A stretch of DNA of 28,265 nucleotides from an uncultured Candidatus Saccharibacteria bacterium (GCA_964646295.1 CAZYED010000001.1:22527-50791), one strand, 5' to 3'. Positions 4,663 through 12,869 are shown, counted from the stretch's first letter. Translations and numbers: made by a program. The notes: generated by a model not told the origin, from the sequence alone.

Positions 4663-6018
4663 ATGGAGAAAGCATCAGAACAAAACTTCGTATCAATGGA
4701 AAAGATCGTGAGCTTGGCCAAGCGGCGCGGCTTTGTCTTTCCCGCGTCCGAGATATATGGCGGGCTTGCTGGTACATGGGACTATGGGCCTTTGGGCGTG
4801 GAGCTCAAAAACAACATCAAAGAAATGTGGTGGCGGAGATTTGTGCGTGCCCGCGACGACATGGTGGGGATTGATACTGCAATCGTGATGAATCCGAAAG
4901 TATGGGAAGTATCGGGCCACGTCGGCGAATTTACCGATCCTCTGGTAGAGTGCAAAAAATGCCATCAGCGTTTTCGCGCCGATCAGACGGACGAATGGAC
5001 GGGACATTACGCGCGGGAGCATGGCCGGGCGGCAGAGGACGCGGATTTTTCCGAAGCGCGGAATTTCAATCTTCTGTTTCGCACATTTGTCGGCCCGGTG
5101 GAGGATTCCGCAAGCCAGACATACTTGCGTCCCGAAACTGCGCAGGGGATGTTTGTGAATTTCAAAAATATCACGGATACCATGCGCCATACTCTGCCTT
5201 TTGGTATCGCGCAGATCGGCAAGGCATTTCGCAACGAAATCACTCCGCGCGACTTCATCTTCCGCTCCCGCGAATTTGAGCAGATGGAAATAGAGTATTT
5301 TGTCCGCGAGGCGTCATGGGAGGATCACTTCGCGCACTGGCTCAACGAAATGCGCGCGTGGATCAGCGATATGGGTATCAGTATGGAGCGCGTGCATGAG
5401 CTTGAAGTGCCGGACGGGGAGCGCGCGCACTACTCAAAGCGCACGGTTGATTTTGAGTATGATTTTCCGTTTGGTAAAAAAGAACTGTACGGCCTCGCAT
5501 ACCGGGGCGACTTTGATCTCAAAAATCACTTCAAAGAGCCGCCGTATCGCGAGGAGGGCGAGGAGCCGTTTTATCCGCACGTGATTGAGCCGACATGGGG
5601 CGTGGATCGTACGGTGCTTGCGGTTTTGCTTGAGGCGTATCGTGAGGAAGAAAGCAAGAAAGGAAAGCGCGTATATCTGAAACTGCCGCCACGTCTGGCG
5701 CCCTACAAAGCCGCCGTATTTCCTCTGGTATCAAATCGTCCGCAGATCGTGGAAAAAGCAAATGAGGTGTGCAAGGAGCTCAAAGCGGGGGGGTTCAGTG
5801 TCGCATGGGACGCGCGCGGCAACATCGGCAAGCGTTATTATGCGCAGGATGAGATCGGCACTCCCTACTGTATCACGGTAGATTATCAGACATTGGAAGA
5901 CGGTACCGTGACAGTGCGCGATCGCGACACGGCAAAACAGGAACGCATAGCCGTGTCGGAATTGGCAAGGTTTTTAGCAGAAAAAACAAAGGGATCAATC
6001 TCAAACGCCACGCAATAG
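4663..6018 (+). CDS. glyQS: Glycyl-tRNA synthetase, homodimeric class II type
   Basis: KRRGFVFPASEIYGG, WDYGPLG, YLRPETAQG, motif 2 QIGKAFRNEITP, EQMEIEYF, and anticodon domain IGKRYYAQDEIGTPYCITVD. Confidence 0.97.
   Translation: MEKASEQNFVSMEKIVSLAKRRGFVFPASEIYGGLAGTWDYGPLGVELKNNIKEMWWRRFVRARDDMVGIDTAIVMNPKVWEVSGHVGEFTDPLVECKKCHQRFRADQTDEWTGHYAREHGRAAEDADFSEARNFNLLFRTFVGPVEDSASQTYLRPETAQGMFVNFKNITDTMRHTLPFGIAQIGKAFRNEITPRDFIFRSREFEQMEIEYFVREASWEDHFAHWLNEMRAWISDMGISMERVHELEVPDGERAHYSKRTVDFEYDFPFGKKELYGLAYRGDFDLKNHFKEPPYREEGEEPFYPHVIEPTWGVDRTVLAVLLEAYREEESKKGKRVYLKLPPRLAPYKAAVFPLVSNRPQIVEKANEVCKELKAGGFSVAWDARGNIGKRYYAQDEIGTPYCITVDYQTLEDGTVTVRDRDTAKQERIAVSELARFLAEKTKGSISNATQ
5917..5942 (+). 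repeat. 26-bp direct repeat, left copy (inside glyQS 3' end); right copy at 10842-10867
   Basis: CGCGATCGCGACACGGCAAAACAGGA is identical at both positions and begins with the 10-bp palindrome CGCGATCGCG. Confidence 0.92.
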
Positions 6019-6087
6019 CCGTGCAGATTTGGATTTATCCATCATCGTGTTGCCAACTTTCTGGAAATGTTGGTCTTTATGCGTCTC

Positions 6088-6116
6088 TTGCGCTCAATAT
6101 CCTTTTGCGCTACATT
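6088..6116 (+). promoter_or_regulatory. Predicted sigma70 promoter in the CRISPR leader
   Basis: TTGCGC(6088-6093)-17 bp-TACATT(6111-6116), 31 bp before repeat 1. Confidence 0.6.
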
Positions 6117-6147
6117 CCCAAAAGCTCTTTGATAGGCCCAAGGCGCT

Positions 6148-7728
6148 GTCTAAGAGTTACCCTATGAGAGGGAGTGTGTAAACGGGCGTAAACGGGCTTT
6201 GGGTCGTTACCCATCTGCGTCTAAGAGTTACCCTATGAGAGGGAGTTGCAAACTTCTGATGCTGGCAGTGATCCATCGCGGGTCTAAGAGCTACTCTCTG
6301 AGAGGAAGTGTGTAAACGTGCGTTGGCTTCCCTAATCTTATTCTTCTAAGAGCTACCCCATGAGAGGATGTGTTGAAACCATTATTGGCCTCCATGTGAG
6401 ATGTGTCAAAGAGTTCCTCATGAGAGGAGGTGTTGAAACGGCTTTTCTCCATCCTGCTAATACAGGTCAAAGGGCCACCTCATGAGAGGGAGTATGCAAA
6501 CGTGTGGTTTCTTTTTCTTGACAATTGTCTAAGAGTTGCCCCATGAGAGGGAGCATGCAAACAGGTGGTCCGTCTCAATCAGCATGGAATCTAAGAGCTA
6601 CTCCATGAGAGGGAGTATGTAAACAGGAGATTCTTCAAGCCGTCGAGGGGTCTAAGGACTACCTTATGAGAGGGAGTACGTAAACGAGCAGTCGGGTTTT
6701 GGCAGATTGAGTCAAAGATGAGAGGGAGCATGTAAACACGCTCTCAAAAAACTTGATGCCGTATCTAAGAACTACCCCATGAGAGGAAGTGTGTAAACTT
6801 GTAAACGCTTCCGTGCCACACATGTCCAGGAGTTACCCTGTGAGAGGGAGCATCTAAACCCAACAGCCGTAATGAGTAGCCCCGTCTAAGAGCCACCTTG
6901 TGAGAGGGAGCGTGTAAACCAACACACTTTTACCACGGAGGCTATGTCTAAGGACTACCTCATGAGAGGGGGCATGCAAACGCGGGATGTTCTCGTGGGT
7001 CGCCTTGGTCTAAGAGTCATCCCATGAGAGGAAGTGTGTAAACGCGTATCGGTGTGCTCGATTGAGAAGTCCAAGAGTTACCCCATGAGAGGGAGCATGG
7101 AAACGACCGAGCCTTCGACTTCCCACGCGAGTCTAAGAGCTACCCCATGGGAGGGAGCGTATAAACAATAACTTGTGTATCATTCGTGTAGAGTTAAAGA
7201 GCCACCTCATGAGAGGAAGTGTGTAAACAGGAGCGCACCGTACCAAAACAATTACGTCTAAGAACTACCCAATGAGAGGATGTATTGAAACCGGACAACG
7301 TCAGCATGCTCTTGAGATCAAAAAGTTGCCATATGAGGGGGAGCGTGTAAACGCCTAAAAACAGAAGGCGACCAAATTGTCTAAGTCTAAGAGTTCCCCT
7401 ATGGGAGGGAGCATGTAAACAAGTCCTCTGATCGTCCGCCATCCCATGTCTAAGAGTCACCCCATGAGAGGGGCATGTAAACCGTCGTCCGAGTCGCAAC
7501 GAGTTTGCAGTCTAAGCGCTACCCTATGAGAGGAAGTGTGTAAACTATAACGTCCTCTGCAAGGTGTCTGGTCTAAGAGTCATCCCATGAGAGGGAGCAT
7601 GTAAACATAGCCCTGACAGGAGAGAGTTACCAGTCTAAGGATTACCTCATGAGAGGGAGAATTGAAACGACGGCAATGGGTGGGGTCCTCAGAGTCTAAG
7701 AGTCACCAATGAGAGGAGGTATTGAAAC
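6148..7728 (+). CRISPR. CRISPR array: 26 degenerate ~36-bp repeats and 25 spacers (24-28 bp, one of 35 bp)
   Basis: Approximate consensus GTCTAAGAGYTACCYCATGAGAGGRAGYRTGTAAAC with a ~61-62 bp period. Repeat starts: 6148, 6219, 6282, 6344, 6405, 6466, 6527, 6589, 6650, 6711, 6763, 6824, 6884, 6946, 7008, 7069, 7131, 7193, 7256, 7317, 7385, 7448, 7510, 7571, 7633, 7694. All end in AAAC. Confidence 0.96.
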
Positions 7729-7756
7729 CTGGCTTACCATGAAGAGTAGCCAACAT

Positions 7757-7916
7757 TAAATTTTTTGAGCCCTGTCTCCGCGAGGAAGACAGGGCTCTTT
7801 TCATGAGAGGAAGCTTTTATACCCGACCGGTAATCCGGTCGGGGGATTGGCCGTTGAAACGATTTTAAAGCGGCCAATGGGCTTCTCTGTACGATACTAC
7901 CTATACAAGGAGCTTG
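7757..7916 (-). ncRNA. Predicted tracrRNA (boundaries approximate)
   Basis: Lies downstream of a canonical promoter. Contains stems at 7846-7878 and 7822-7843 (9-bp perfect), an anti-repeat at 7802-7822 complementary to the repeat 3' half, and the 7767-7797 hairpin. Confidence 0.72.
7767..7801 (+). terminator. Intrinsic terminator-like hairpin downstream of the array
   Basis: Perfect 11-bp stem GAGCCCTGTCT/AGACAGGGCTC (7767-7797) followed by TTTT on the + strand. Confidence 0.6.
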
Positions 7917-7922
7917 GGGAAA

Positions 7923-7951
7923 AAGATAGCTCAATCACGTTATCTTGTCAA
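7923..7951 (-). promoter_or_regulatory. Predicted sigma70 promoter for the tracrRNA
   Basis: Minus strand TTGACA(7951-7946)-17 bp-TATCTT(7928-7923). The -35 box lies in the last codons of the cas gene. Confidence 0.7.
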
Positions 7952-10513
7952 GGGGTTGGGAGCATCGGTATCCGGCGTGCGCCTGATCAAAGATATGGCG
8001 CGCCACGCCAGATTGATCGCGGCCAGCACGTCGGACTGTCCGTTGAATCCGCATCGGTGGCAAAAAAACTGCCCCCATTGCGGTTGCGGCTCAAGCGCAA
8101 GCCCGAGCAGTTGTCTGCTCTTGTGATCGTCCCCTTGCCGGATCGCTCGCTCAAGGTCTTCCAATGTCCCCCGCACGACGCGATGATAACGCGGAGTCAG
8201 CCGGACCCACTCCCTGCTAAGCGTAAAAAGTTCCCCGAAATCCACAGTGCCTGCATCGCAATCCACGTTGTCAAACCCCGTTGCGGCCGCGTCATCCACG
8301 ATATCGGGAATGACTACCATGGTATCGCGGTGTCCGGGATTTTTCGGTCGTCTCGCAAGCCAGGCGGTTCCGCACTGTGTGCAGGTGCGGGAGATGCCGC
8401 CCGGATAAATTTCCATCAGACCTCCCCATGGGTTGTCTTTTTTGTCAATGCGGACCGCGCCGGCAAAACTCAACGCGTCCACAAAGCCCGTTTTGTTGGC
8501 AAGATAGGTCTTTTTGGAAATAATCTTTTGCTCCCTGCCATGGAACCGGTCATCCAGCCGTTCTATCGCGAGGATACCTTTCCAAAATGCGACCAGTGAA
8601 TGGATCTTTGCCCGGGCGCTTCCCAAAACCGTATCCTGCAGGTGTCGGACCTTTTGGCGTAAATCGCGGGGCGGGGTTTGTTCGCGGGATTGGTACTCGC
8701 TGATCCGGCGTCTGGTCTCTATCAACCGGTCTATGTACTCCTTTTTGCCGAGAATACCCTCCTCAAGCACCCGGCCATCCTCTACAGACACCACGGCATA
8801 GGCAAGCGGATTGACCTCGCCGCGGTTTATCCCGATGACGGTGCGGGCGCGGGAATGCACATCGGAGGAGAAATCCAGATACCCCACCGGCGGAGGTCCG
8901 CTGATGACCATATGGAAGAATAACGTCCACTGGTCTTGGGGATTTCTTTTTTTCCCCACCAGCTTGGCGTTGGAGGCGAATACGCGCGGATTATCCGACA
9001 AGAGGCCCCACGTTTTATTGGTGAGCATCTTGCGCGCCTGCGATCTGCCGAAATAAAGGCGGAGTTTCAGCGCTACACCGGATGCGGGGTACTCGTCAAA
9101 AGATCCGGGTACCCATGTGATCTCTTTGTCCGGATTGTCTTTGCCTCGTCTGCCGCCGGTCGGTCTCATATAGATCAAATCTCCTCCTTTTTCTCTGATA
9201 GAGAATGCGGCGGGTGATGGGGAAAGACAGATATATAACTCCAGGGCATCGGCCGGAGTGTCGGCGTCTTTGGCAAGCGCCATGCCGTATTGAGGCGCGG
9301 GATTGGTCCGGTTGCTCGCCCACGAAAATCCTTCAAACGGGGCCGATATTGTCTCGGCTCGCACTCTTCTGCTTGCCGCATTGCTCCGGAGGAACTGGAT
9401 CTCGGTCCACCGGTCAGGATGCGCAAGCGTCGCGCGAAAGGAAAGGATATCCATGTATCTTGCCCTGATCTGGCTGTCAAAGGGCGCGCGGGCAAATCCT
9501 TGACGGCGCTTTTCGCATACCCGATCAATTTCGCCGAGGAAATGTCCGGCGACCGTTGACGGATCTTCTTCGGGGTTCCTCTCCATACGGATAGCACAGT
9601 ACAGAGCGACTCGTTGGGGCAGTGGCACGGCGCTTCCGAGTTTCCGGCGCACAGCCTTGTGCCTCACGCGATGGATATAGCCGAGGGTTTCGGCGGTGTG
9701 TGGTCTGACCTTTGCCATATCTTCCAGTTGCCGGATGATTACCATGGTATCCGGCGGCGTCCCGCGCTCGGCAATGGGAAATTTCGGAAGGTCGTTGATC
9801 CGCCCATTGAAAAATCGGAGGCGGGGCGACTCCCCGGTTTCTTCCGGCTCGTCCGCTTTCGCAAGGGCTGGAAGCATCTGATTGAGCGCGTAATTGTACG
9901 CGCCTTTCAGCACGTTTGTCTCTGCAATGAGCGCCCGGAATGCGCAAAGCGCGCCAAAATCCGCCGTCACCGCATCATACTCGGGCGCCAGACAGGTGGT
10001 GAGGCGGGTACGCAGGGCGTTGACAATGTCGGCCCAATCCATGTCCGCCGCATCCCGGAGTAACGCCTCATTGGCCTCCAAACACTCGGCGTATTCCCGC
10101 ATTTTCTTCCGGCCTTCCTCAAAAAGCCGTCGGTGGTTGGTGTGGAATGCGGCCATTGCGCCTTCGGCCTCGTGTCGCATTGCCGTAAAAACGGCAGATG
10201 TCATGATCGCGGGGTCAATATCGCGAAGGCCGTCAAGCACGGGCCTGCCTTTAAAAAATGTCTCGTATGAGAATTTTTCTTTCAGGTAGGCAAGGGGATT
10301 TTCTTGGAAATGCGCATAGAGCATTCCATAGAGTCTCTCACGCGCGGCCTCTGTCGCGGCAAACCATCGCTCTATGATGGCGTATTGCCTCTTTGTCGGT
10401 TTTATGCCAAAAGAGAATACGCGCGTGACTTGTCCGGGGATGACCCCGAAGTGATCGCTAATACGAGTCGTGTTGACCAAGGATTTGGTACTGGGCTTAT
10501 GCGCGTCGTCCAC
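7940..10513 (-). CDS. cas12: Type V CRISPR effector, CasX/Cas12e-like (857 aa), with RuvC-I Asp replaced by Asn; predicted nuclease-impaired
   Basis: TnpB-like N-terminus (RVFSFGIKPTKRQ), RuvC-I VIGINRGEVNP, RuvC-II ILAIERL (E651), split Zn ribbon CTQC (711-714) and CHRC (818-821), RuvC-III QSDVLAAINLA (D828). GTG start with SD AAGGAG; adjacent to the array. From memory it closely resembles the Ca. Sungbacteria 'CasX3' sequence in CasX patent filings (not verified). Confidence 0.9.
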   Translation of the reverse strand: MDDAHKPSTKSLVNTTRISDHFGVIPGQVTRVFSFGIKPTKRQYAIIERWFAATEAARERLYGMLYAHFQENPLAYLKEKFSYETFFKGRPVLDGLRDIDPAIMTSAVFTAMRHEAEGAMAAFHTNHRRLFEEGRKKMREYAECLEANEALLRDAADMDWADIVNALRTRLTTCLAPEYDAVTADFGALCAFRALIAETNVLKGAYNYALNQMLPALAKADEPEETGESPRLRFFNGRINDLPKFPIAERGTPPDTMVIIRQLEDMAKVRPHTAETLGYIHRVRHKAVRRKLGSAVPLPQRVALYCAIRMERNPEEDPSTVAGHFLGEIDRVCEKRRQGFARAPFDSQIRARYMDILSFRATLAHPDRWTEIQFLRSNAASRRVRAETISAPFEGFSWASNRTNPAPQYGMALAKDADTPADALELYICLSPSPAAFSIREKGGDLIYMRPTGGRRGKDNPDKEITWVPGSFDEYPASGVALKLRLYFGRSQARKMLTNKTWGLLSDNPRVFASNAKLVGKKRNPQDQWTLFFHMVISGPPPVGYLDFSSDVHSRARTVIGINRGEVNPLAYAVVSVEDGRVLEEGILGKKEYIDRLIETRRRISEYQSREQTPPRDLRQKVRHLQDTVLGSARAKIHSLVAFWKGILAIERLDDRFHGREQKIISKKTYLANKTGFVDALSFAGAVRIDKKDNPWGGLMEIYPGGISRTCTQCGTAWLARRPKNPGHRDTMVVIPDIVDDAAATGFDNVDCDAGTVDFGELFTLSREWVRLTPRYHRVVRGTLEDLERAIRQGDDHKSRQLLGLALEPQPQWGQFFCHRCGFNGQSDVLAAINLAWRAISLIRRTPDTDAPNPLTR

Positions 10514-10716: not shown

Positions 10717-10814
10717 GAGAGAAGTGTGAGCTTGCTTACGCTTCTCTCGAGCGACGACGCATCACCTGCTTATCGGTAGGCAGGAAGAGTCAATACCCCG
10801 CGGCTTGCCGCGGG
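10717..10814. repeat. Cluster of three palindromic hairpins upstream of cas12
   Basis: 10717-10748 (15-bp stem with two G-T pairs, GCTTGC apex), 10765-10784 (CCTGCTT/AGGCAGG), and 10797-10814 (CCCGCGGC-TT-GCCGCGGG, preceded by GTCAATAC). Confidence 0.7.
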
Positions 10815-10841
10815 TCAGTACGCGCGAAATGCGTTCAACCC

Positions 10842-10928
10842 CGCGATCGCGACACGGCAAAACAGGAGCGGATAACGGTGAAAGGGATTAATATGTATAC
10901 ATCGAAAATAAAAACTAAAAGTGATTAA
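10842..10928 (+). pseudogene. Second copy of the glyQS 3' end
   Basis: Reads RDRDTAKQERITVKGINMYTSKIKTKSD*, versus RDRDTAKQERIAVSELARFLAEK in glyQS; no start codon or upstream glyQS sequence. Confidence 0.82.
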
Positions 10929-10940
10929 GAGGAAATAGTT

Positions 10941-11210
10941 ATGACGCCCCTTCTCTATCTCTTGCTTAATATATGCCTAATTCTACTTGCCGTTATACCC
11001 ATAGGTGTGGTCATCCCTGATTATCCTCTTAGTTATTTTGTAACGTATAAAGGCCCATGGTTCTATATACGTATTGGCAATAGACTTGTTGTTGGAAATA
11101 TGAGACGAAGACACGATCTGCCTCCATTTAACTATAAACGTCGTATAATCTATTCTCTTATAACGGCAAATCTAATCTTTCTTATGTTACAATATCTTCC
11201 CTTCTCTTGA
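10941..11210 (+). CDS. Small hypothetical membrane protein (AT-rich)
   Basis: 89-aa ORF with SD GAGG and two hydrophobic segments. Confidence 0.5.
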   Translation: MTPLLYLLLNICLILLAVIPIGVVIPDYPLSYFVTYKGPWFYIRIGNRLVVGNMRRRHDLPPFNYKRRIIYSLITANLIFLMLQYLPFS

Positions 11211-11228
11211 AGAGTAATGTCAATATAA

Positions 11229-11591
11229 ATGAATCAACTTATGAATTTTTTAAAGAATCGAACCTATAGACTCTTAGCCGTAGAGTTGGTTCTTTTGGAT
11301 TTGATCCTATCGGTCTTCGGTTCTTTTTTCGCCCTGGATGGCTCACCGCAATTCATAGTAGATATTATGGGATTTCTCCTTAACATACTTTTCTGGTTCG
11401 GTATACCGGTATTTATCGTGTATCCCCCCATTTACTTAATAAAAAGAATGAGGGCAAAAAAGAATCTTGACAGGGAGGCATTTTATGCGTTGTATGGAGT
11501 ATCAATGCATCAGATATTGACGATCATATTTCTCCTCTTTTTATTGCCAATGTTCATACTGCCAACCCTGAACGTAATCTTATTTTGGTAA
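11229..11591 (+). CDS. Hypothetical membrane protein (AT-rich, about 3 TM)
   Basis: 120-aa hydrophobic ORF whose stop abuts the M16 start. Confidence 0.6.
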   Translation: MNQLMNFLKNRTYRLLAVELVLLDLILSVFGSFFALDGSPQFIVDIMGFLLNILFWFGIPVFIVYPPIYLIKRMRAKKNLDREAFYALYGVSMHQILTIIFLLFLLPMFILPTLNVILFW

Positions 11592-12869
11592 ATGTTTATG
11601 TTTAAAAAAACCACATTAGAAAACGGATTGCGCATTATTACCGCTCCTATGGTCGGGACCAATACCGTGACGGTACTGGTGCTGTGCGGTACGGGATCGG
11701 ATTATGAGGCGCGGGAGATCGGAGGCATCTCGCATTTTTTGGAGCACATGTTTTTCAAGGGCACGAAGAATCGCCCGACGCCGGATCATATCAAGCATGA
11801 GCTTGACGGCATGGGGTCCATCTCCAATGCGTTTACGAGCCATGAAATCACGGGCTATCACATCAAAGCCGCCAAGACCTATCTTGATCAGTCGCTTGAC
11901 CTGCTCGCCGATATCTACAAAAACTCTCTTTTGGCGGAGGAAGAAATCAATCGCGAGCGGCAGGTGATCATAGAGGAGATGCACAAAGACCGCGACACGC
12001 CGACGCTATTTGTCTGGTGGGTGTGGGAGCGGCTCCTGTACGGAGACCAGCCGGCCGGATGGGACGTCATCGGAGAGGAAAAAGTGATCCGCGCGCTCTC
12101 GCGCGATGATTTTGCCAATTACTTCACGCACCAGTATGTCGCGTCCAACACCGCGATCGTGATCGCGGGCAATTTTGACCAGGACGCTACGGTTGCCCGC
12201 GCGCGAGAGCTTTTTGGCGATCTGCGATCGGCTCCGCCCATGCGGACGAAGCCCGCGGTACGCGATATACAAAACGGCATCGGGCTTGACCTTGAGTATA
12301 AGGAGACGGATCAGACGCATATCACGCTCGGATTTCGCGGATATGACGCAAATCACCCCAAGCGCTATATCGCGGAAGTGCTTGCGGCCCTGCTCGGAGG
12401 ATCGTGGAGTGCCCGTATGTGGGATCGCATACGCGACAAGCTTGGCCTGGCATACACCGTGATGACGGCGCATGAATCGTATTCAAACCGCGGATATCTT
12501 GTGACGTATGCGGGCGTGGATCACGCCAATGTGGAGAAGACGATCCGCGCGGCTCTGGAGGAATATAAACGCATGACCGTGGAGCCGGTTTCGGCGGCCG
12601 AGCTCAAGCGCGTCAAAGACTATATGCGCGGCACGACCCTGATCGGCCTTGAGCAATCCAATGCGGTGGCAAATTTCATCGGGGGAGAGGAGATGCTGAC
12701 GGGCAAGCCCCAGACGATTGATGAGGTGTTTGCGAAGATTGACGCGGTAACGCCAGAAGATATCCTGATGGTATCGCGCGAGCTGATCCGCCCCGAGGCT
12801 CTCAATCTTGCCATGATAGGGCCCGCCCGCGATCGTGCGCCTTTTGAACGCATCTTGAAAGAACTATGA
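11592..12869 (+). CDS. M16 family zinc peptidase (pitrilysin-like)
   Basis: Inverted zinc motif HFLEH in GISHFLEHMFFKGT; NAFTS; IRDKLGLAY. Confidence 0.93.
   Translation: MFMFKKTTLENGLRIITAPMVGTNTVTVLVLCGTGSDYEAREIGGISHFLEHMFFKGTKNRPTPDHIKHELDGMGSISNAFTSHEITGYHIKAAKTYLDQSLDLLADIYKNSLLAEEEINRERQVIIEEMHKDRDTPTLFVWWVWERLLYGDQPAGWDVIGEEKVIRALSRDDFANYFTHQYVASNTAIVIAGNFDQDATVARARELFGDLRSAPPMRTKPAVRDIQNGIGLDLEYKETDQTHITLGFRGYDANHPKRYIAEVLAALLGGSWSARMWDRIRDKLGLAYTVMTAHESYSNRGYLVTYAGVDHANVEKTIRAALEEYKRMTVEPVSAAELKRVKDYMRGTTLIGLEQSNAVANFIGGEEMLTGKPQTIDEVFAKIDAVTPEDILMVSRELIRPEALNLAMIGPARDRAPFERILKEL

Follow-up and report, generated by a model that had tools for sequence, protein, structure and literature searches.

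A CasX-like (Cas12e) locus whose 26 CRISPR repeats all differ: probable long persistence without growth under a tracrRNA-pairing filter

The closest described systems are those of type V-E, represented by DpbCasX and PlmCasX, in which an effector of the CasX family is accompanied by 36-nt repeats ending in AAAC and by a tracrRNA with two U-tracts, a stem and an anti-repeat. Cas12k of type V-K and Cas12m of type V-M are effectors that bind without cutting, and their orphan or adaptation-less arrays are short. CRISPR arrays gain spacers at the leader end and accumulate substitutions in their old repeats, and polymorphic repeats, discussed in this respect for terminal repeats, are thought to resist recombinational loss (PMC8047081). 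The locus described here lies within a stretch of 28,265 nucleotides (the window) and resembles the type V-E systems of known structure (PDB 6ny1 and 7way) in effector family, in repeat length and ending, and in its predicted tracrRNA. Unlike its type V-E relatives, it has no cas4-cas1-cas2 module, carries Asn in place of Asp in RuvC-I and has an array that converges on cas12e. With the V-K and V-M systems it shares an effector whose DNase is probably impaired, a locus without an adaptation module and guides that have long been kept, but where their arrays are short the window keeps 25 guides, and its sister species has recent units at the leader end. As in ordinary degenerate terminal repeats (PMC8047081), the substitutions are in old repeats; unlike ordinary trailer-end degeneracy, they affect every repeat in the window, the first two included, and show no gradient.

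The array occupies positions 6148–7728 on the + strand and was parsed into 26 repeats, nominally of 36 nt (starts 6148 to 7694, ends 6183 to 7728), separated by 25 unique spacers. Twenty-one repeats are 36 nt long, four are 35 nt and one, R10, is 27 nt; R10 has an internal 9-nt deletion in its 5′ half and a complete 3′ handle. The spacers are 24–28 nt long with a mode of 25–26 nt, apart from outliers of 35 and 32 nt, and in this alternation of fixed-length repeats with unique spacers of fixed length the array is canonical. Its repeats are not identical or nearly so: all 26 sequences are distinct, pairs differ at 1–15 (mean 7.2) of the 36 columns, and mean identity within the array is ~80%. Nineteen columns are informative and 12 are invariant (2, 5, 18, 19, 21, 23, 24, 27 and 33–36), the AAAC end and the core being unchanged in 26/26 repeats. 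The core motif has 24 copies within the array or immediately behind it (23 in repeats and one in a pseudo-repeat at 7802) and two in other places; 2.1 would be expected over the whole window. The two long spacers each carry a tandem duplication over a repeat/spacer junction, of 10 nt in S1 (GTAAACGGGC twice, 6178–6197; 35 nt in all) and of 6 nt in S20 (GTCTAA twice, 7379–7390; 32 nt). These duplications and the R10 deletion fit an old array that has not been renewed.

Between the stop codon of a class II aaRS gene and the first repeat lies the leader (6019–6147, + strand), which is identical in the sister species at 125 of 131 positions (6/131 differ), compared with differences of 18–30% at synonymous sites; the leader–repeat junction is the same in both. 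At the other end, a strong hairpin at 7767–7797 lies between the array and the tracrRNA; the TTTT that follows it on the + strand makes it a likely terminator of the pre-crRNA, and it is kept in the sister with one change. Neither a second array nor a spacer match (self-target) was found in the window's own genome. The repeat family was not found in IMG/VR or in 34 other genomes of the family, no protospacer was found in IMG/VR for the spacer shared with the sister (S12) or for the sister's two extra spacers, and no Rfam family matched in the window. Similarity among the 25 spacers is not above chance, with none duplicated or moved, and segmental duplication of the array was rejected on this ground.

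An earlier note on this DNA had pointed out that all 26 repeats differ and that variants recur in non-adjacent repeats, and both observations are borne out by the parsing. The variant GGACTACC is present in R9 and R14 and GAACTACCC in R11 and R19, R15 and R24 share an identical 16-nt 5′ part, an identical 18-nt 3′ end is common to R3, R11, R15, R18 and R23, R4, R5, R19, R25 and R26 end in TTGAAAC, and R24 does join the 5′ half of R15 to the 3′ half of R10. That all repeats differ is not surprising in itself, since 99.4% of trials with independently shuffled columns yielded 26 different sequences (P = 0.99). No correlation links the 5′ half of a repeat to its 3′ half (r = 0.05), and pairs with the same 5′ half show no excess (two against 0.6 expected, p = 0.11). 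Most of the sharing that gives a mosaic appearance is thus what chance yields from ~19 sites of few states. Tests for block structure and polarity along the array were negative: neighbouring repeats resemble each other no more than distant ones do (mean difference 7.16, against 7.22 for all pairs; Mantel r = −0.05, p = 0.75), nor do they in the 5′ half or the 3′ half taken alone, and neither the distance to R1 nor that to the consensus follows a gradient (rho 0.11, p = 0.6).

The array converges on a gene for an effector of 857 residues (7940–10513, − strand), which matches NCBIfam NF045604 with 681 bits (cut-off 200) and is named Cas12e by its PADLOC model. As a single sequence it gave no match reaching the solved CasX chains. 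A profile built from the effector and 16 relatives aligned over the full length of PlmCasX (7way, 3.7e-101), of two other Cas12e structures and of DpbCasX (6ny1, 1.5e-83). On the strength of these matches the effector is assigned to type V-E as a Cas12e/CasX-like protein. The gene is intact, and its dN/dS of 0.23 against the sister indicates that it is under purifying selection. The RuvC D-E-D triad is incomplete: the window and its sister have IGINRGE, with N563 (codon 8825–8827) at the position of the RuvC-I Asp, where 15 relatives have IGIDRGE or IGVDRGE, while E651, D828 and the zinc cysteines are retained. Judged from this substitution, the nuclease is probably impaired, and the effector may bind DNA without cutting it.

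On both sides of the array and cas12e the genes are housekeeping ones, and no cas4-cas1-cas2 module adjoins the effector. The window's own genome is an 864-kb CPR bin, 92.5% complete, whose nearest record is a Candidatus Sungbacteria MAG; neither cas1, cas2 nor cas4 was detectable in it, and cas1 (PF01867) had no match in either this MAG or that of the sister. The sole Cas2-like hit (PF09827) was rejected as a PaaX (PaaX_M) regulator. Relatives with 27–34% identity have cas4-cas1-cas2 beside cas12e (P0004, P0006 and P0007; the module is listed also for L023 and L025). Only one of the relatives' arrays, that of L025, was assembled; its 14 identical 36-nt repeats and spacers of ~34 nt differ from the mutually different repeats and 25–26-nt spacers of the window. 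Cas12e of this type occurs in only two lineages among 62 genomes of the order, so that one orthologous array is available for comparison. The window's own Cas12e is absent from the contig index, and literature searches combining CasX or Cas12e with Sungbacteria found nothing. Between cas12e and an M16 peptidase gene lie ~830 bp (10765–11596) that are absent from the sister, which has 88 bp there; this stretch holds ORFs of 89 residues (10941–11210) and 120 residues (11229–11591) with no match in Pfam, NCBIfam or PADLOC. Beyond the CRISPR module, 39 nt at 10842–10880 copy the class II aaRS gene at its 3′ end (5917–5955) with 90% identity.

Directly 3′ of cas12e, a tracrRNA is predicted on the − strand at approximately 7760–7915 (fold z = −6.9 against shuffles). 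Its elements follow in the order hairpin 1 (7846–7878), with a 17-nt U-rich loop in which the repeat 3′ end has its complement, hairpin 2 (7822–7843), an AUAAAAG motif, the anti-repeat (7802–7822, with a 13-nt core at 7814–7802) and a strong terminal hairpin 3, a layout which we take to match the triplex, scaffold stem and extended stem of the CasX sgRNA. Read on the + strand, the anti-repeat is a degenerate copy of the repeat 3′ half. A promoter-like site, TTGACA-17-TATCTT (7923–7951, − strand), overlaps the end of cas12e; it is a consensus match only, with both hexamers conserved in the sister, and is a candidate for the tracrRNA promoter. The tracrRNA region differs from that of the sister at one position in ~127 nt. 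The same layout is found directly 3′ of cas12e in six loci (the window and five others), with compensatory changes in 9 of the 15 consensus pairs, and L025 has a 17-nt perfect anti-repeat in the same place. Thus, as a predicted RNA, the locus has the tracrRNA with anti-repeat that characterises type V-E.

Columns 16–28 of the repeat are complementary to the tracrRNA, with the complementarity extending imperfectly to column 36. When these 13 columns are set against the anti-repeat in all 26 repeats, 282 of 336 cells are Watson–Crick pairs, 48 are G·U and 6 are mismatched; wobbles account for 48 of the 54 departures from Watson–Crick pairing, and 20 of the 26 repeats have no mismatch at all. With the array read in the other direction, each of the 54 would be a mismatch. 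A transition at a G or U of the crRNA breaks the pair and one at an A or C gives a wobble, and within the 13-bp duplex all six G/U positions are invariant and all seven A/C positions vary (p = 6e-4). Of the states that keep a wobble, 7/7 are seen, against 4/32 of those that break a pair (p = 2e-5). Mean duplex energy is −22.4 kcal/mol, compared with −18.3 ± 0.6 when the same changes are placed at random (0/300 as good). The pattern identifies the partner RNA and, judged by this predicted pairing, shows that the + strand carries the crRNA sense. It also means that selection for function acted on the repeats as they diverged. An intramolecular hairpin of the repeat (columns 13–16 with 21–25) was set aside, since pairing with the tracrRNA fully accounts for columns 16–28.

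The array of the sister species, whose Cas12e is 90% identical to that of the window, is present at the same chromosomal site in ten assemblies, with 4 units in six of them (L001–L004, L009 and L010) and 6 units in four (L005–L008). The two extra units stand at the leader end and have unique 25–26-nt spacers, and their repeats are the same as the first repeat down to its private 2-nt insertion. The 6-unit form therefore begins, at the leader end, with three repeats of one sequence, and its older repeats are all different. Whether the difference between the forms is a gain or a loss, the pattern is the canonical one, and the new units are shown to be exact copies of the leader-proximal repeat. 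These leader-end spacers were made with a 25–26-nt ruler, and cas1 was not found in the sister's MAG. The earlier note had reasoned that growth by Cas1–Cas2 should leave contiguous blocks of identical repeats, which is right and is what the sister has. It had also named growth at the leader end with uniform new repeats as the pattern that would count against its own interpretation, and this too is seen in the sister, with mutually different repeats among the older units. The heterogeneity is consequently not a property of how the system grows.

A single unit, R12-S12-R13 (6824–6919, + strand), is common to the window and the sister. S12, the 12th of 25 spacers in the window, is identical at 23 of 24 positions to the trailer-most spacer of the sister, and the repeats flanking it keep their 5′ parts in both species (GTCCA... 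and GAGCCACC). At least one unit is thereby shown to predate the species split (dS 0.2–0.4). The repeats of the shared unit have 10 differences, nine of them at columns that vary elsewhere in the array, and 9 of 38 informative sites differ (24%), which, for these 38 sites in one orthologous unit and one sister lineage, compares with a pS of 0.18–0.30 in six flanking genes. Informative sites within the array differ by ~38%; set against the 24% of the shared unit, this suggests that most units arose before the two species parted. If the sister state is ancestral, 9/9 changes fall on the window branch, about twice the neutral expectation, on small numbers. S12 itself is better conserved than expected under neutrality (1/24, P ~ 0.009 at p = 0.25), a single data point which hints at selection on this guide.

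We consider it probable that this is an old array which no longer grows but is still functional, and whose repeats have drifted under a tracrRNA-pairing filter in the absence of adaptation genes. Growth in the clade is canonical, with leader-end units copied from the first repeat; in the window lineage neither adaptation genes nor a recent identical block could be detected, and growth would have ceased very long ago. Of the 36 positions in the repeat, some 19 would be free to change, in three groups: positions in the 5′ part, which is probably outside the mature crRNA; the mismatched junction at columns 29–32; and positions at which a transition turns a Watson–Crick pair into a G·U wobble. At these sites drift at about the neutral rate, carried near to saturation, would make each repeat unique, erase blocks and polarity and cause distant repeats to share variants by chance. 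Removal of pair-breaking changes by selection would imply that the array is still in use. The diverged repeats probably hinder deletion within the array, as a by-product of survivorship and not as the selected cause of the divergence. The step from the missing cas1 to the absence of growth is not secure, since the sister has changed at its leader end and its MAG also lacks cas1; an integrase may be encoded on unbinned DNA.

The distribution of the 3′ variants speaks against drift as the whole account. The descendants of an in-place duplication stay contiguous, and the 3′ haplotypes are scattered along the array, so that in-place duplication followed by drift does not give them unless they are convergent, and the scattered families need either convergence on a small set of permitted combinations where duplex and triplex meet, or conversion of short tracts. 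Gene conversion or recombination, within the array or with co-occurring strains, could have moved short tracts, mainly in columns 25–32, between homologous anchors in the core (columns 18–24) and the AAAC end, to give true mosaics; shuffling of this kind had been suggested in the earlier note. Linkage at short range is in excess (r2 for d ≤ 4 of 0.073 against a null of 0.044, p = 0.003) and falls with distance (rho −0.23, p = 0.001), the PHI test for recombination on the repeat alignment gives p = 0.02–0.045, and the signal stays after columns of possible multi-base events are dropped (p = 0.002–0.025). Identical 18-nt 3′ ends number 11 pairs against 3.6 expected (about threefold, p = 0.007), and A at column 25 never occurs with C at column 28 (9:0 against 5:11, p = 0.001). 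The repeats flanking S12 agree with each other at columns 17 and 28 within each species and differ between species, although this concerted pattern has a chance probability of ~0.2. In addition, a contig from run X2 (record 15) covering 7737–7960 has sister-type letters in the 5′ region of the tracrRNA, which places both lineages in the same groundwater study. Against conversion, linkage overall equals the null (p = 0.23) and at long range lies below it; the signal is confined to columns 25–32, with none in the 5′ patch alone (p = 0.11–0.14); the homology blocks are only 4–8 nt; and no spacer has been duplicated or moved. A decay of linkage with distance can be mimicked by slower sites under partial constraint that lie close together, or by epistasis where duplex and triplex join. 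Thus most of the sharing stays at chance level and the part of the suggestion that survives is a modest but robust excess of linked 3′ variants (columns 25–32, p ~ 0.003–0.01), which could reflect gene conversion or convergent selection. We regard conversion as possible, if on the unlikely side.

A wider reading, which we put forward only tentatively and with slightly less expectation, is that the array is a frozen, hereditary bank of guides for a nuclease-impaired CasX. On this reading selection would have preserved the guides in both species, S12 being identical at 23/24 positions where neutral sites differ by 18–30%, in an array whose repeats would have become too individual for it to collapse by recombination any longer. 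The scattered 3′ haplotypes would be traces of conversion between repeats or of a co-adaptation of each handle with the single tracrRNA. In the sister, new units would be added with no recognisable cas1-cas2 in the genome, by an integrase that is trans-acting or unknown and has a ruler of 25–26 nt.

It seems improbable that the divergence of the repeats was itself positively selected as a means of blocking deletion and so preserving a guide set that cannot be renewed, which was the other proposal of the earlier note and resembles the idea put forward for terminal repeats (PMC8047081). The proposal agrees with the failure to detect adaptation genes, with an array that is the same across four sequencing runs, with a sister whose sole length polymorphism involves its three identical repeats and with the conservation of S12. 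Yet the rate at the variable sites is close to the synonymous one and not above it, adjacent repeats, where protection would matter most, have no excess of differences, and survivorship explains the same facts; nothing in the data shows that divergence was favoured. Overall, the interpretation of the earlier note is partly supported.

That the array is a decaying relic with unconstrained repeats is very improbable. The missing cas1, cas2 and cas4, the change of the RuvC-I Asp to Asn and the small indels (the R10 deletion and the S1 and S20 junction duplications) could be read in this way. They are outweighed by the wobble-only filter on the 13-bp duplex, by the AAAC end and core that are invariant in every repeat and the complete 3′ handle kept even by R10, and by a leader and tracrRNA far more conserved than synonymous sites beside an intact cas12e with a low dN/dS.

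The sequence comes from a metagenome of low coverage (word depth 3–5), but chimeric merging of reads from several strains or arrays can safely be set aside, since Logan contigs of four groundwater runs match stretches of several units exactly (for example 6978–7623, 7191–7556 and 6453–6737) with one SNP, no joints and no indel variants, divergent repeats ease assembly rather than hamper it, and it is the relatives' contigs that break where arrays seem to start. The heterogeneity is thus not an artefact, a possibility the earlier note had allowed for. No gain or loss of a spacer or unit was seen for the window's strain in the four runs, and the array is stable in the sampled groundwater population. 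Among the relatives, contigs end at the apparent start of the array (P0003, P0004 and P0005), with three contig ends (L021, L023 and L024) lying soon after cas12e or cas2. Repeat divergence may therefore bias which arrays appear whole in short-read metagenomes: divergent arrays such as this one assemble where uniform arrays break contigs, and arrays of ~80% identity, often discarded by array finders, can be functional.

What is new here is a variant of type V-E without an adaptation module, with a nuclease that is probably impaired and with a 26-repeat array that is individualised and yet constrained. The heterogeneity of the repeats has in itself an ordinary cause, mostly old age together with the missing spacer-adding genes, rather than a novel mechanism of shuffling. 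The 26 natural variants serve as a ready-made mutational scan of the guide RNA of a CasX-type system, showing which positions of the handle tolerate change, which is useful for the design of guides for compact Cas12e, and they provide a calibrated rate, in that permissive repeat sites change at approximately the synonymous rate. The locus also offers a clear natural example of an array long after adaptation has stopped, in which interference or binding is still selected.
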